64,000 nucleotides of DNA, from positions 180,800-244,799 of the forward strand of contig CAWKGS010000004.1 of assembly GCA_963849285.1 (NCBI GenBank), in the 5' to 3' direction. A program made the translations under genes and the position numbers. The notes under the pieces are model-generated. The model ran no database searches and was not told the DNA's origin. It was given only the letters and a program-made list of their open reading frames with translations. Source of the stretch: an uncultured Solirubrobacterales bacterium. GTDB taxonomy: Bacteria; Actinomycetota; Thermoleophilia; Solirubrobacterales; Solirubrobacteraceae. This document shows, in pieces, positions 4,688 to 18,257 of the stretch; within the stretch, counting starts at the first letter, position 1, and every line of letters begins with the position of its first letter.

Positions 4688-5740
4688 GTGCCCCCAGTCA
4701 TCAACGTCCACACGCATTACCAGCCAGGGTCGGTGCTGCCGATCATCGAGCCCTACGGGATCGAGATGGTCACAGCGCCGGACGGCAGCTGGCACTTTCG
4801 CTCGGGCGACGTCGAATACAACATCCCGGGAACCCCCGACAAGTTCTGGGGCAGCGGCCTTGGCGGCCAGATCCCGGAGATGGACGCCGCCGGCATCGAC
4901 ATCAACGTCCTACAGCCGAGCCCGATGATCTTCAGCTATCACCTCGACCCGGAGGTGAATCAGGAGTTCTCGCGGGCCTTCAACAACGAGACGGCGAAGC
5001 ACATCGCCGAGCACCCCACCCGCTTCTGGGGCTCCGCGCAGCTACCGATGCAGGATCTGGAGATGGCGGCGGCCGAGCTCGAGCGCTCGATCAACGAACT
5101 CGGTCTGAAATCGTGCTCGGTCGGTTTCATCCTCGGCCCCGACAAGACGCTCGCCGACCCCGAGTGTGACGAGTTCCTCTCTACGGTCGAGCGGCTCGAC
5201 GTACCACTCCTGCTGCATCCGGTCGCGCTGGGCCAGGACATGGACGTCGTCGCGGGTCGCGCGAGCTGGCTGCTCAAGTACCAGATGGACTGGGCGTGGG
5301 GGTACCTGTTTACAGAGACCGTCGCGGTCGTCGGCTTCATCTTCAGCGGCGCGCTTGACCGCCACCCCGACCTGCGGGTCATGATTCCCCACGGCGGCGG
5401 GATGATCCCCTACCAGCTCGGGCGCATGGAATATCAGGCGAAGGTGTTCGGCGCCGGTCACCGCGGCGCGGGCGAGCAGCTGCAGCGGCCTCCGGTGGAG
5501 TACCTCGGGCGCTTCTACTTCGACACGGTCGTCCACGAGCCGCGCTCGCTGGAGCTCCTGATCGACGTGATGGGCGAGGACAACGTCGTGCTTGGCTCCA
5601 ATTACCCCGGATGGGACAACGCGCCGATCTGGGAGACGATCCGGGCACTGCCCAATCTCAGCGATCGAGCCAAAGAGAAGATCCTCGGAGAGAACGCGGC
5701 TGACCGCCTGTTCCGGGTCGACGTCCCCGTGCCCGCCTAG
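4688..5740 (+). CDS. Amidohydrolase-2 family protein (ACMSD-like decarboxylase/hydratase)
   Basis: Motifs NVHTH, LLLHP, IPHGGG, YFDT and LGSNYP. Confidence 0.85.
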   Translation: MPPVINVHTHYQPGSVLPIIEPYGIEMVTAPDGSWHFRSGDVEYNIPGTPDKFWGSGLGGQIPEMDAAGIDINVLQPSPMIFSYHLDPEVNQEFSRAFNNETAKHIAEHPTRFWGSAQLPMQDLEMAAAELERSINELGLKSCSVGFILGPDKTLADPECDEFLSTVERLDVPLLLHPVALGQDMDVVAGRASWLLKYQMDWAWGYLFTETVAVVGFIFSGALDRHPDLRVMIPHGGGMIPYQLGRMEYQAKVFGAGHRGAGEQLQRPPVEYLGRFYFDTVVHEPRSLELLIDVMGEDNVVLGSNYPGWDNAPIWETIRALPNLSDRAKEKILGENAADRLFRVDVPVPA

Positions 5741-5745
5741 AGCTG

Positions 5746-6051
5746 ATGCGCTATCTCGTATCCATCGCTCCAGAGACCCAGGCCAACAACGAGATCGATC
5801 GCTCCGGCGAGGTCATGCCCCTGCTGAATTGGCTCAAGGACACGTTCAAGCCGGAGGCCTTCTATCTGGAGGCCGCGCAGCGCAAGATCTGGATGGTCGC
5901 CGAGTTCGAGACGGCGGGAGATCTGAACAAGCTGACGTGCATCGGGATCTTCAAGTTCGGTGCCTATCCCGAGTTCCGGCCGCTGTTCACCGAGGATGAG
6001 AACACGACCGCGATCCCGGCCTCTCTGGCGCTGATGGAGTCGATCTCGTGA
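5746..6051 (+). CDS. Small alpha/beta protein, GYD/DUF3303-like (tentative)
   Basis: 101-aa ORF coupled to both neighbours; KPEAFY and PEFRP pattern. Confidence 0.5.
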   Translation: MRYLVSIAPETQANNEIDRSGEVMPLLNWLKDTFKPEAFYLEAAQRKIWMVAEFETAGDLNKLTCIGIFKFGAYPEFRPLFTEDENTTAIPASLALMESIS

Positions 6052-13903: not shown

Positions 13904-14182
13904 ACAGAGGTCGTGACCGCCAGTGGGGATGGGAGCGCCCGGCTCTGGGACCCGGCTACCGGCGAGCAGCTTGCGGCGCTCGGCGGGTTCACCGGCACTG
14001 TCTTCGCGGCATCGTTCTCGGCTAACGGGACGCGCGTGATGGCGGTCAGCGGAGACGGGTCGACCCGGGTGTTCGCCTGCGACGTGTGTGGGACCGTGGC
14101 GCGTGTGACCGGGGCCGCGAGGCGCCTGGTGCCCTGGAGCCTGACGGCGACCGAGCGGCAGAAGTACCTATCGGGCACCTGA
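13904..14182 (+). pseudogene. C-terminal remnant of a WD40-repeat protein
   Basis: TEVVTASGDGSARLWD...FSANGTRVMAVSGDGSTRVFACDVCG begins mid-repeat directly after the previous stop codon, with no RBS. Confidence 0.8.
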
Positions 14183-14216: not shown

Positions 14217-14687
14217 CTAGCCCACCGCCGCTGGCCGTTGCGCCTGCTGGACGACCGGATGCGCGCTCGACGACGACGGCGATCCGAGGTGAGCGTCGAG
14301 CGCCGTGACCTTCTCGGTGTCGAGGTAGACACGAAGCTCGTGGATCAGTCCCCAGCGGACGAGGATCCACTCGGCGCCGGCGTTCTCGTAGACGTGGCCG
14401 TCGGGCGCAACCATGCGATCGGTGAAGCGCATGAAGATGCGCGTGTTCCACGGGGGGCCGGCGACGGCCGCGTCGTGCACGTGGAACTCGGGTCGCAGCG
14501 AGGCGAAGCGGCGCATCCAAGCGGCGACCGCGGGCTTGCCCCGGTGCTCGCCGCCGAACGAGCTCTCGCCCGCGAACACGAGGCGTACGTCGGCGGCCAG
14601 CGCCAGCAGGGGCAGCCGTAGCTGGCCCTTCACGAGCTTCTGCTCGTAGATGAAGGCCAGCAGTCGCTTCACGATCCACGAATACAT
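14217..14687 (-). CDS. SnoaL/NTF2-like family protein
   Basis: ADVRLVFAG...GEHRGK and RWGLIHELRVYLDT pattern. Confidence 0.75.
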   Translation of the reverse strand: MYSWIVKRLLAFIYEQKLVKGQLRLPLLALAADVRLVFAGESSFGGEHRGKPAVAAWMRRFASLRPEFHVHDAAVAGPPWNTRIFMRFTDRMVAPDGHVYENAGAEWILVRWGLIHELRVYLDTEKVTALDAHLGSPSSSSAHPVVQQAQRPAAVG

Positions 14688-14749: not shown

Positions 14750-15256
14750 CTAGCGTCCGCCCAGCTCCAGGACCGCGTCGAGCACCGCGAGCGAGGCGCG
14801 GGCTGTGCCGTCGACGAGCGCCTCGATGTCGCGGCCCTCGACGGCGGTGACGAACACCACGCCGTCACGGCTGATGTTCCATCCGGGCGCCCTGACCAGC
14901 CGCTCGGCGAGCTCCCGCCAGCCTCGTGGTCGCCCGGCGATCTCGATCGCGCCGCCCATGTCGTCGATGTCGTAGCGGTGCTCGCGGCGGCGGACGCGAA
15001 CCCGTATCGGCCTGCCGGGCATGTAGGACAGCCCGGTCGTCCGGACGTCCTCCGAGCGGTCATCCGCGTCTCGAGCGGATCGGGCGAGCGCCGGCCACGA
15101 CCGGTAGCCCAGCTCCGCGGCAATCGCTCGCTGAGCGTCCGTCAGCCGTGGCGTGCGGTCCTCGCGCAGTCGAGCGACCGCGTCGGGGTCGCCGGCGCGT
15201 GCGTCACGAAGCAGCTCCTTCGCGCGCCGCCGCGCCTGCTGGATGTCGATCTCCAT
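14750..15256 (-). CDS. Hypothetical two-domain protein
   Basis: RBS GGAGGAG precedes ATG 15256. The N-terminal ARRRAKELL...DAQRAIAAELGYRSWPAL helical module resembles those seen ahead of ankyrin proteins. Confidence 0.6.
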   Translation of the reverse strand: MEIDIQQARRRAKELLRDARAGDPDAVARLREDRTPRLTDAQRAIAAELGYRSWPALARSARDADDRSEDVRTTGLSYMPGRPIRVRVRRREHRYDIDDMGGAIEIAGRPRGWRELAERLVRAPGWNISRDGVVFVTAVEGRDIEALVDGTARASLAVLDAVLELGGR

Positions 15257-15419
15257 CACGATCTCCTCCGACGGCGCCCGGTGCTCGCATCCCGCGCGCC
15301 GGAGTGGATCGCGAGGAACGCTCCTCAACACGAGGTGATGGGCCTCGGGCCCTGTCCGCGAGCCGGACGCGCTCACCTGGGCGCGCAGCCGGAATTCTAC
15401 CGCCTCACAAGCCGCGTCT

Positions 15420-15448
15420 TTGACATACGTACAGCCTGTATGTATGAT
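15420..15448 (+). promoter_or_regulatory. Housekeeping sigma promoter for atpE
   Basis: TTGACA (15420-15425), 17 bp, TATGAT (15443-15448); RBS GAGGAGG before ATG 15488. Confidence 0.85.
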
Positions 15449-15470
15449 GCGTACACCCTGTACGTGTCAT
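15424..15470. promoter_or_regulatory. Two tandem palindromic operator-like sites (CGTACA-N3-TGTAYG) overlapping the promoter
   Basis: CATACGTACAG-C-CTGTATGTATG centred at 15435 and CGTACA-CCC-TGTACG centred at 15457. Confidence 0.65.
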
Positions 15471-15487
15471 CCGCGAGGAGGTCAACA

Positions 15488-15748
15488 ATGTCGATCCATG
15501 TGCTGACACTTGCCGCCACCCTCAGCAACGACGGGCTCAAGTCCCTGGCGATCGGCGTCGCCGGTGGCCTCGGCGCGATCGGCGCCGGCGTCGGGATCGG
15601 ACCGATCTTCGCCAAGTCGATGGAGTGCATCACCCGTCAGCCGGAGATGCGTGAGGAGATCACGAGCATCCAGTGGCTCGGGTTCGCCCTCACCGAGGCG
15701 TGCTTCTTCTACGGGCTCGTGGCCGGTCTGATCGCATACGTGCTCTGA
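15488..15748 (+). CDS. atpE: F0F1 ATP synthase subunit c, stand-alone copy
   Basis: GxGxxGxGxGxG helix, RQPE loop and LTEA carboxylate helix; 86 aa. Confidence 0.9.
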   Translation: MSIHVLTLAATLSNDGLKSLAIGVAGGLGAIGAGVGIGPIFAKSMECITRQPEMREEITSIQWLGFALTEACFFYGLVAGLIAYVL

Positions 15749-15768: not shown

Positions 15769-16734
15769 ATGGTCCGGATCGCGGTCCTCGACGACTACCA
15801 GCGGCGGGCTCACGAGTTCGCCGATTGGAGCTGGCTCGGGCCCGAGGCGCAGGTCAGCTACTTCCACGAGCCGATCGAGCGCTCGGAACTGCCGGCGACG
15901 CTGGCGCAGTTCGAGGTGCTGGTTCTGATGCGAGAGCGCACCGCGTTCCCGCGCGAGGTGCTCGAGCAGCTCCCGGACCTCCGGCTGCTGGTCACCACCG
16001 GGATGCGCAATGCGTCGGTGGACGTCCCCTACCTGTCCGAGCGCGGCGTGGTGGTCTCCGGGACGAGCGTCGGCGGAGCCCAGGGCGCCGGCGTGCCGAG
16101 CACGGCCGAGGTTGCGTGGGCCCTGATCCTCGCGATGTTCAAGCGCGTGACCACCGAGGATCGCGCGCTCAGGCAGGGACGCTGGCAGGTCGGCCTGCCG
16201 CGCAACCTCGCCGGCGCCACGCTGGGGCTTGCCGGGCTCGGGCGCCTCGGCGGCGCGATGGTGGCGCCCGCCCACGCGTTCGGCATGGACGTGATCGCCT
16301 GGAGCCAGAACCTCACGGACGAGCAAGCCGCAGAGCACGGGGTCGAGAAGGTGTCCAAGGACGAGCTGCTCGAGCGATCGGACGTGCTCTCGATCCATCT
16401 CGTGCTGAGCGACCGCACGAAGGGTCTGATCGGCCAGCGGGAGCTGGCGCTGATGAAGCGCACCTCGGTCCTGATCAACACCTCCCGCGGACCGATCGTC
16501 GATGAAGGGGCGCTGATCGACGCGCTGCGCGACGGCCGGCTCGCCGCCGCCGGACTCGACGTCTACGACCGCGAGCCGCTACCGGCCGACCACGAGCTGC
16601 TGCGCCTCGAGAACACGGTCCTGCTTCCCCATCTGGGATACGTGAGCGAGTCAGGGCTGCGCGCGATGTACGGCGAGGTGGTCGAGGACATCGCGGCATT
16701 CCTGGTGGGTGCGCCGATCCGGACGCTCCCGTGA
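15769..16734 (+). CDS. D-isomer specific 2-hydroxyacid dehydrogenase
   Basis: Motifs LDDYQ, MRERT, GLGRLG, INTSRG, LDVY and PHLGY. Confidence 0.9.
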   Translation: MVRIAVLDDYQRRAHEFADWSWLGPEAQVSYFHEPIERSELPATLAQFEVLVLMRERTAFPREVLEQLPDLRLLVTTGMRNASVDVPYLSERGVVVSGTSVGGAQGAGVPSTAEVAWALILAMFKRVTTEDRALRQGRWQVGLPRNLAGATLGLAGLGRLGGAMVAPAHAFGMDVIAWSQNLTDEQAAEHGVEKVSKDELLERSDVLSIHLVLSDRTKGLIGQRELALMKRTSVLINTSRGPIVDEGALIDALRDGRLAAAGLDVYDREPLPADHELLRLENTVLLPHLGYVSESGLRAMYGEVVEDIAAFLVGAPIRTLP

Positions 16735-16747
16735 GAGGCGGGCGGCC

Positions 16748-17275
16748 TCACCAGAGATCCCCTTCCCGCCAGTCGCAGGTCAGCTCGCCGTCGAGATCCA
16801 GCGCCGCGCTGACCGGGAGCACGTAGATCGAGCCGTCGTCCTCCTCGGTGCGGACGATCCCCTCCGGTGTCAGGCCGAAGATCGGGCCGCGCCAGAGCCT
16901 CCAGCCGCATGCCTCGTAGAGCGCCGCGCCGTCGTCGGTCGCTCCGAGGGCGCCAAGCTCGTATGCGCCGCGAATGACCGGCTCGAGCGCGCGCAGCAAC
17001 GTCGCCCCATGGCCGCGCCTGCGATGCGCGGCATCCACAGCGACCCCCTCGACGTAGCCCGTGCGGAGCGCTCGACCGGCGTGCATGATCCGGCGCTGCA
17101 CGAGCGAGGCGTGGCCGATCAGCTCGCCTCCCTCCCAAACGAGGGCGTGCATGCCGCCGAGGGTGTGCTCGTAGGCGAGCTCTGTCATCTCCTCGCCGAA
17201 GACCCGATCGAGCAGGGCGCGGATCGCCCGCGGCACCTCGGATCCGAGCGCAGCGGTGTGAACCAGCTGAAGCAC
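16748..17275 (-). CDS. aac(2')-I: Aminoglycoside 2'-N-acetyltransferase-like GNAT
   Basis: EHTLGGMHAL, GYVEGVAV, RGAYELGAL and C-terminal CDWREGDLW recall mycobacterial AAC(2')-Ic. Confidence 0.85.
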   Translation of the reverse strand: MLQLVHTAALGSEVPRAIRALLDRVFGEEMTELAYEHTLGGMHALVWEGGELIGHASLVQRRIMHAGRALRTGYVEGVAVDAAHRRRGHGATLLRALEPVIRGAYELGALGATDDGAALYEACGWRLWRGPIFGLTPEGIVRTEEDDGSIYVLPVSAALDLDGELTCDWREGDLW

Positions 17276-17330: not shown

Positions 17331-18257
17331 ATGCCGGAAAGCGACGCGATGATCACGCAGGTCCGCCGGTTCAACCGGACCGTGACACAGCGCGCCGGCG
17401 CGCTGGGCGACCGGTTCCTCGATCTGCCACGGCCGCTGGTCGCGTCCCGGGTCCTGTGGGAGATCGGGACCGAGGGCTGCGAGGTGCGCACGCTGCGTTC
17501 GCGATTGGCGCTGGACTCCGCACAGCTCAGCCGCCTGTTGCGAGGGCTCGAAGCACAGCGGCTGATCAACCTTGAACCGAGCCCGCTGGACCGCCGGATC
17601 CGCGTGGCTCGTCTGACCGCGGCGGGCTTCCAGGAGCGCGAGGAGCTCGACCGGCGAAGCGACGAGCTGGCGGGGTCGATCCTGGAGCCGCTGGGCGAAG
17701 CCGAGCGCGGGCAGCTGGTCGCGGCGATGCGCACCGTTGAGCGGCTGATCACCGCCTCTCTGATCCAGATCCGCGTCGTGGACCCCGCGGGCGCCGACGC
17801 ACGCCGGTGCCTGCGCGCCTACTTCGCCGAGCTGAACCGCCGCTCGAGCAGGGGCTACGACCCTTCCCGGGGCATCTCAGCGGAGCCGCACGAGATGCGC
17901 GAGCCGGCCGGGGCTTTCCTCGTGGCCTACCTGCGCGACGAGCCGATCGGCTGTGGCGGCGTCAAGCACCATCCCGGCGAGCCCACCGAGATCAAACGGA
18001 TGTGGGTCGCGGAGTCCGCGCGCGGGCTCGGCCTGGGGCGGAGGCTACTCACCGAGCTCGAGGAGCTGGCTCGAGCAGCGGGAGCCCCGGCCGCTCACAT
18101 CGAGACGAGCGACGTGCTGCACGAGGCGATCTCGTTGTACCTGTCATCCGGCTATCGAGAGGTCCCGCCGTTCAACGACGAGCCGTTCGCCAATCACTGG
18201 TTCGAGAAGCCGCTGCGCTCCTCCGATGACAGGTCCTCGGGCAGCGGAACGTCCTGA
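17331..18257 (+). CDS. MarR-family HTH fused to a GNAT acetyltransferase
   Basis: VRRFNR...wHTH N-terminus; EIKRMWV...RGLGLGRRLL C-terminus. Confidence 0.85.
   Translation: MPESDAMITQVRRFNRTVTQRAGALGDRFLDLPRPLVASRVLWEIGTEGCEVRTLRSRLALDSAQLSRLLRGLEAQRLINLEPSPLDRRIRVARLTAAGFQEREELDRRSDELAGSILEPLGEAERGQLVAAMRTVERLITASLIQIRVVDPAGADARRCLRAYFAELNRRSSRGYDPSRGISAEPHEMREPAGAFLVAYLRDEPIGCGGVKHHPGEPTEIKRMWVAESARGLGLGRRLLTELEELARAAGAPAAHIETSDVLHEAISLYLSSGYREVPPFNDEPFANHWFEKPLRSSDDRSSGSGTS

Follow-up and report, generated by a model that had tools for sequence, protein, structure and literature searches.

The ion-to-ATP ratio of ATP synthase is determined by how many c subunits it has and of which kind, and several classes of antibiotics act on the c-ring. 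As far as we know, bacteria are generally taken to fix the ring by means of one gene within the atp operon. In mammals, ATP5MC1-3 (P1-P3) are several differently regulated genes whose mature c subunit is identical. Acetobacterium woodii also has more than one c gene for a single F1Fo, with a heteromeric c1/c2/c3 Na+ c-ring (PDB 4bem). All of these A. woodii genes are located within the atp operon, and c1, a duplicated subunit with four helices, lacks one ion site. Second rotary ATPase operons (N-type; two sets in Photobacterium profundum, PMC10054830) also bring a second PF00137 gene into a genome, together with their own partner subunits. As for regulation, the closest described system is Rv0078/Rv0077c (LoaA) of M. 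tuberculosis (PMC6016246; PDB 5wm9, 6c31). According to EMSA and the co-crystal, two dimers of the repressor Rv0078 (LoaR/EthR2) bind an operator of 21 bp with two 10-bp inverted repeats, and the wild-type probe contains TTACAAGCAG-A-CTGCCGGTAA (PMC6016246). The system has one operator, which overlaps the transcription start, the regulator is adjacent, divergent and autoregulated, and the first regulated gene encodes an alpha/beta hydrolase. The described mycobacterial regulon is without an ATP synthase c gene, whereas a c gene is the predicted target at the locus described here. The new element is a stand-alone bacterial c gene with an Rv0078-type TetR repressor, conserved as a unit; each of the two families is known singly. 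A full-text literature search for stand-alone, duplicated or orphan atpE genes found no description of such a module.

The gene, designated atpE2 (putative accessory F-type ATP synthase c subunit), is located at 15488-15748 on the plus strand of the window, which is the whole stretch of 64 kb analysed. The ATG is at 15488 and the TGA at 15746-15748, and the 86 residues preceding the stop codon are MSIHVLTLAATLSNDGLKSLAIGVAGGLGAIGAGVGIGPIFAKSMECITRQPEMREEITSIQWLGFALTEACFFYGLVAGLIAYVL. The product matches the Pfam family ATP-synt_C (PF00137) with 45.7 bits over profile positions 1-59 of 60, where a cut-off of 24 bits was applied. The Gly-rich helix 1 is GGLGAIGAGVGIG, the loop is formed by R50-Q51-P52-E53, and the helix-2 carboxylate is E70 within LTEA. 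The sequence can be aligned across the entire hairpin with c10 subunits of known structure (1wu0 and 9itj, among others), and the chains of 4bem are also among the solved relatives. By the profile and the hairpin hallmarks, the predicted product belongs to the F-type c subunits. The sequence-only reading, which had reported an intact atpE with the RQPE loop and the Glu in LTEA, is thus borne out by the reading frame, the profile match and the residues at positions 50-53 and 70. It had also pointed to a Pro in helix 1 and two cysteines. These residues are present (Pro39 within GIGPIF, Cys47 and Cys72), but they distinguish the orphan only in part. Cys72 is also found in the housekeeping copy, and therefore only Cys47 is specific to atpE2. 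Pro39 is restricted to the closest relatives of the window, and this position is otherwise Q, M, L or I in the orphan clade. In contrast to the c genes of A. woodii, atpE2 encodes a normal 86-aa single hairpin with the carboxylate present, lies outside the operon and appears to be separately regulated. Because it is a single hairpin with the carboxylate outside the operon, an Acetobacterium-type heteromeric c-ring gene was rejected.

The assembly consists of 9 contigs (4.32 Mb, 91.5% complete), and PF00137 matches it twice, at atpE2 on the 574-kb contig C4 and at the operon atpE on contig C5. The C5 operon is complete (atpBEFHAGDC). Pfam matches account for subunits c, b, delta, alpha, gamma, beta and epsilon, and the candidate ORF for the a subunit has homologs adjoining atpE in about 110 related loci. 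According to tblastn searches with all atp subunits, the assembly contains no second a, b, alpha, beta, gamma or epsilon gene besides those of the C5 operon. No atp match is located within 22 kb of atpE2 or elsewhere on its 574-kb contig. The absence of a further atp gene in the 64 kb, as claimed before, is confirmed, and all the remaining atp matches fall on C5. Relocation of a sole atpE would have explained the isolated position. This is ruled out, since the C5 operon holds its own atpE; with the main operon located and the two copies compared, atpE2 is a true second copy. Only one F1Fo set is present in the assembly, and the single alpha/beta set (tblastn) rules out the operon of a second rotary ATPase of the N-type or V/A-type. 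Unlike the c genes of such operons, which have their own partner subunits, atpE2 stands alone in its genome.

The housekeeping AtpE and AtpE2 share the PF00137 fold of two helices with the Gly-rich helix 1, the RQPE loop and the helix-2 Glu. They differ in that atpE2 lies alone on another contig behind its own promoter, which is predicted to be repressible. Over the stretch that begins with the loop and ends at the C-terminus, AtpE2 is 85% identical to the operon copy, and it lacks the C-terminal Lys of that copy. The flanking DNA of the two genes is unrelated. Ten of the 12 substitutions are located in helix 1, namely A21/G20, V24/I23, A25/G24, I31/V30, P39/I38, A42/G41, S44/V43, M45/I44, C47/A46 and I48/V47 (AtpE2/operon). 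The dS value between the two genes is about 0.5 in both halves, and dN is 0.27 in helix 1 versus 0.023 in the loop plus helix 2. As dS is equal in both halves, the identity of helix 2 results from selection and not from recent gene conversion, which is ruled out for this genome, and the duplication is old.

Changes between Gly and Ala in the GxGxGxG motif of c-ring helix 1 are known to change the ring stoichiometry. The two Gly-to-Ala replacements in AtpE2 helix 1 (A21/G20 and A25/G24) could affect ring packing. One explanation is that AtpE2 builds a ring of different subunit number, with another H+/ATP ratio, for conditions of low proton-motive force or altered pH. The concentration of substitutions in helix 1, including these two and the change of G41 to A42, is in line with this explanation, and so is the conservation of the isoform-specific helix-1 sequence between the window and its closest orphan (L052). 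However, the core GAIGAGVGIG motif is unchanged, and helix 1 of the orphan is closer to ordinary operon copies of neighbouring genera than to an extreme variant. In addition, a TetR-type ligand sensor is no obvious sensor of proton-motive force or pH. We consider a ring built for this purpose to be unlikely, and the orphans of sister genera described below also speak against it.

Between atpE2 of the window and L052, 22.5 synonymous and 3.5 nonsynonymous differences were counted (dN/dS 0.04). The dN/dS values are 0.04-0.44 among the orphans and 0.08-0.14 among the operon copies. These results indicate that atpE2 and the orphan clade are under purifying selection. A protein search gave many full-length relatives of AtpE2 at 70-90% identity. 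In the maximum-likelihood tree, nine diverged orphans, including that of the window, form one clade (support 93/81), which nests among operon copies carrying the helix-2 signature TEACFFYGL; the alignment has only 70 columns, and the forks deeper than the orphan clade are not settled by it. The N-terminal sequence 'LTDAG(QSG)LRSLAIG' was dropped as an orphan marker, as it is also present in the operon copies P0042 and P0084. These two proteins are similar to AtpE2 but are ordinary operon copies. Stand-alone copies are found in many independent assemblies (L047-L049, L052, L139, L142, L143, L145 and L146).

A neutral or decaying duplicate, or an artefact of assembly or binning, was also considered, because in some related MAGs (G014 and G024) the second PF00137 match seems to come from a duplicated contig end or a mixed bin; these matches were set aside. 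For atpE2, the reading frame is intact, dN/dS goes down to 0.04, the gene is embedded in a 574-kb contig, and many independent assemblies contain orthologs behind the same promoter. Decay or artefact is already contradicted by the dN/dS values and the conserved promoter, and we give it hardly any credence.

The promoter of atpE2 consists of the -35 hexamer TTGACA (15420-15425, plus strand) and the -10 hexamer TATGAT (15443-15448, plus strand) with a spacing of 17. The match (15420-15448) agrees with the consensus at 11 of 12 positions and is the sole sigma-70-type match in 2.8 kb, where shuffled sequence gives 0.1. The same -35 hexamer is found in L047, L048, L139 and L142. The Shine-Dalgarno sequence GAGGAGG (15476-15482, plus strand) is located 6 nt 5' of the ATG, and AGGAGG-type sites are also present at the remaining orphan loci. 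The promoter and ribosome-binding site attributed to the gene before are thus both recovered. Two 21-bp palindromes overlap the promoter. The predicted operator O1, ATACGTACAG-C-CTGTATGTAT (15425-15445), occupies the spacer between -35 and -10, and O2, ATGCGTACAC-C-CTGTACGTGT (15447-15467), spans the expected transcription start. The distance between their centres is 22 bp. The order of TTGACA, box, TAnnAT and box is found upstream of the orphan atpE in 10 loci from different assemblies, with a TTGACA-TAnnAT spacing of 17.

The core CRTAC-N5-GTAYG has 2 matches in the window against 0.03 expected, and 11 matches genome-wide against about 8 expected. The loose core is therefore not rare genome-wide, only the extended boxes are specific, and the core was dropped as a regulon finder. 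Two further sites were rejected as regulon members: C6:52553 is intragenic, and C9:17080 is a different, GCATAC-type palindrome. Around the latter, tandem palindromes (GCATAC-TGAAA-GTATGC and GCATGC-TGTGA-GTATGC; G000 C9, about 17065-17125) are located just 5' of an ATPase-like gene (..GPRRYGKTTLL..). Their layout is like that of the atpE2 operators, and the half-site is different. A stricter box pattern gave 4 matches in the 4.3-Mb genome, comprising the two at atpE2, one at the start of the TetR gene P0122 and one intragenic site. The box at the exact start of P0122 (CGTACACGCTGTACG) matches the O2 core CGTACACCCTGTACG at 14 of 15 positions.

P0122 (G000:C2:654932-655570, minus strand) contains the domains TetR_N (70.2 bits) and TetR_C_41 (122.9 bits). 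It matches the Rv0078 chains 5icj and 5wm9 with an E value of 2e-41 over residues 15-209, and the recognition helix is GVTRGALYHHF in P0122 versus GVTRGAMYHQF in Rv0078. By these features, P0122 is assigned as a homolog of Rv0078 of the TetR_N plus TetR_C_41 type. The operators show a corresponding likeness. O1 and O2 have the same 10-1-10 layout and the TAC-N3-CAG-N-CTG-N3-GTA positions of the Rv0078 operator, and box 1 of L052 shares 14 of the 21 positions with that operator. By layout, the predicted atpE2 operators belong to the Rv0078-type 21-bp operators. The promoter of atpE2 differs from the mycobacterial one in having two operators, which flank the -10 hexamer, instead of one. Also unlike the adjacent, divergent arrangement there, the regulator gene of this genome (contig C2) is unlinked to atpE2 (contig C4). 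The connection to atpE2 is therefore drawn from the identity of the motifs and from the neighbourhood of the two genes in other genomes.

In G061, the genome of L052, the ortholog of P0122 is 70% identical, and the reverse complement of the box 5' of this TetR gene is identical to the O2 core; a second box is also present. The same box is thus found at the start of the TetR gene both in this genome (G000) and in G061. In L139, L142 and L143, orthologs of P0122 (P0123 and P0124; TetR_N plus TetR_C_41) are divergent beside the orphan atpE, and the operators are the same. In genus g48 (L151 and L161), a relative of P0122 with 51% identity is convergent downstream of the orphan, and one box of the same operator type as in the window is present at each promoter. 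Separate regulation of atpE2, proposed from the sequence before, is thus supported by its own sigma-70-type promoter and two predicted operators tied to a LoaR-like TetR. Operators of the BlaI/MecI/CopY type were also considered for the TACA..TGTA boxes and dropped, as a box lies at the TetR gene and TetR orthologs adjoin the orphan atpE. Two orphans are exceptions: that of G033 is without boxes, and that of G034 has a variant box CTAC-N5-GTAG. The regulation is therefore not uniform across the orphans. In G034 (L044, 6260-6310, minus strand), the two boxes have an altered half-site (ACTAC-N5-GTAGT and GCTAC-N5-GTAGC), and the LoaR-like TetR of this genome retains a CATAC-AAACA-GTATG box. The change of half-site may reflect rewiring to another repressor.

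The sequence-only reading had called for a survey of orphan atpE genes. Of 151 genomes surveyed in the family, about ten have two c genes, including all five sampled genomes of g48. In g48, G068 and G134, the mature products of the orphan and of the operon copy are identical or nearly so. The paralogs within a genome were compared for L150/L151, L152/L153 and L160/L161 (g48), L154/L155 (G068) and L156/L157 (G134). Orphan and operon copies are 0-6 nt apart in four of the five pairs and 21 nt apart in G134, and the copies of different g48 genomes are 14-27 nt apart. The N-terminal tails and the flanks differ between orphan and operon copies in these pairs. As the differences within a genome are small compared with those between genomes, the sister genera show concerted evolution. 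This pattern suggests that gene conversion has recurred between the two loci, which lie on different contigs or, in G068, about 165 kb from each other on a single contig. For g48 and G068 the indication of conversion is clear, and for G134 with its 21 nt it is weaker.

The same regulated module thus encodes an operon-identical protein in g48, G068 and G134, and a changed ring cannot be its general purpose. Since the regulated orphan equals the operon protein there, the family-wide feature is a repressible extra supply of c subunit, not a different protein. An inducible c-subunit supply, i.e. an effect of dosage, looks like the role common to the family; this role had not been considered in the sequence-only reading. 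As with mammalian ATP5MC1-3, the regulated extra gene of g48 and G068 encodes the same mature protein, and the shared idea is separate control of c supply. In contrast to the mammalian genes, the module is bacterial, has a ligand-type repressor and no targeting peptides, and its mature sequence has diverged in the lineage of the window.

The second PF00137 matches in G001 (L033) and G018 (L035), genomes of the same genus, are located beside alpha/beta-like genes. They are part of a further rotary ATPase of a different type rather than of the orphan module. L037 (G020:C4:930601-930789) is a highly divergent stand-alone c-like gene with 38% identity, the RQPE loop and the TEA carboxylate; it has no atp neighbours and a very long branch in the tree.

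According to the results above, we presume with moderate confidence that atpE2 is a functional accessory c gene of the sole F1Fo, silenced by a LoaR/EthR2-like TetR and induced by a small molecule. Repressor binding, induction, ring assembly and a physiological benefit are features that we infer from the sequences. In the proposed mechanism, dimers of the repressor encoded on contig C2 would occupy both 21-bp palindromes, O1 in the -35/-10 spacer and O2 at the transcription start. The repressor would also be autoregulated, since the same box is located at the start of its own gene. Binding of a ligand would free the promoter of the repressor, and a short mono- or bicistronic mRNA would give a burst of c subunit. 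AtpE2 would then join, or replace, the c-rings working with the same stator and F1. As the loop and outer helix 2, with the carboxylate site and the a-facing side, are near-identical to those of the operon copy, AtpE2 should assemble with the same stator and F1. In the lineage of the window, the extra copy has escaped homogenization and become a distinct isoform with a changed inner helix 1. Its loop and outer helix have stayed compatible with the same stator, in line with assembly into the one F1Fo present. A further step would be a ligand-gated remodelling of the rotor, in which the LoaR-like TetR of Thermoleophilia injects an alternative c subunit on a chemical cue and alters H+/ATP or the sensitivity to poisons. 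We put this forward only tentatively.

The ligand bears on another explanation, a response to c-ring inhibitors. The TetR would sense a hydrophobic xenobiotic attacking the c-ring, such as an oligomycin/venturicidin-type macrolide made by soil actinomycetes nearby, and induce extra or altered c subunit; this is a possibility we hold with considerable doubt. Overproduction of the target, decoy rings or a less sensitive ring would then restore ATP synthesis, and this second part is equally doubtful to us. TetR-family repressors are commonly xenobiotic sensors that de-repress resistance functions, and the host organisms are soil bacteria. The existence of a dosage-only version of the module fits target overproduction. 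According to the PDB entries and the title of PMC8634040, Rv0078/EthR2, the closest solved relative of the regulator, binds synthetic hydrophobic ligands. However, de-repression of the Rv0078 regulon left antibiotic susceptibility unchanged in M. tuberculosis (PMC6016246), and neither an efflux pump nor a biosynthetic cluster is linked to atpE2 or the other orphans at the examined loci. Helix 2 of AtpE2 is essentially unchanged, and no direct resistance substitution is visible. In solved c-rings, helix 2 forms the outer surface facing the inhibitors and the a subunit. Its near-identity to the operon copy argues against a directly drug-insensitive target. On the consequences suggested in the sequence-only reading (ring stoichiometry, inhibitor sensitivity, pH or PMF stress), the sequence points in both directions.

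With atpE2 read as an accessory c gene of the one F1Fo, the results suggest that these bacteria may add to or alter the rotor of ATP synthase on a chemical signal. The module recurs in a soil actinobacterial family, and its c gene is either homogenized with that of the operon or altered in the inner helix alone. It would allow regulated supply or remodelling of the rotor to be tested in a compact system. The LoaR/EthR2 family, which in M. tuberculosis is without a known natural ligand or a clear function, would gain a new kind of target. If remodelling of the rotor is true, a signal would control the gearing or the drug target of a bacterial ATP synthase through a single stand-alone gene, and the composition of the ring would be altered without touching the remaining enzyme. 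Transferred into laboratory hosts, the module could serve to probe the formation and the effects of mixed or alternative c-rings.

The gene downstream of atpE2 encodes a D-isomer-specific 2-hydroxyacid dehydrogenase (15769-16734, plus strand). It begins after 20 nt with no terminator between, and is probably co-transcribed with atpE2 in this genome. The genes downstream of the orphans vary, including 2-hydroxyacid dehydrogenase (window), Zn-ADH, alpha/beta hydrolase with PPK2, a SnoaL-like gene or none. A conserved downstream partner (2-hydroxyacid dehydrogenase, Zn-ADH, PPK2 or SnoaL) is ruled out, as none is kept across the genomes. The neighbours bear on a role outside ATP synthase, in which the orphan c would form a ring or oligomer, by itself or together with a different partner, and serve for instance as a pore or scaffold in the membrane. 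Such a role would agree with the lack of a conserved atp neighbour. However, no non-atp neighbour is conserved either, and almost every genome has other genes downstream. AtpE2 is near-identical to the operon copy in the RQPE loop, the contact site for gamma/epsilon, and across the entire face towards the a subunit, and sister genera tolerate gene conversion between the orphan and the operon gene. A role outside ATP synthase is thus very improbable in our judgement.

Several features of the neighbouring genes were also observed. On the metagenome contig L142 (4141-6051), genes for an alpha/beta hydrolase, AtpE and polyphosphate kinase 2 form an operon opposite the LoaR-like TetR gene, and the position of the hydrolase, the first regulated gene, parallels that of Rv0077c (LoaA) beside Rv0078 in M. 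tuberculosis. A SnoaL_2/NTF2-like gene is located in the window at 14217-14687 (minus strand), about 800 bp upstream of atpE2. Such a gene lies directly 3' of atpE2 in L145 (4375-4788), and in L151 (about 5500-5950) it is divergent from the TetR gene with a ATACATACTGTCTGTATGT box between them. The SnoaL_2/NTF2-like genes may be a further member of the regulon. The ORF at 14750-15376 (minus strand) of the window, divergent from atpE2, has 208 aa and no Pfam match, and its likelier start is MEIDIQQ.. at about 15256. The 89-aa ORF at 13913-14182 (plus strand) shows only weak matches to WD40 beta-propellers and may be a fragment of a larger repeat protein. Downstream, a GNAT acetyltransferase gene (16748-17275, minus strand) is back to back with a MarR-GNAT fusion gene (17331-18257, plus strand).
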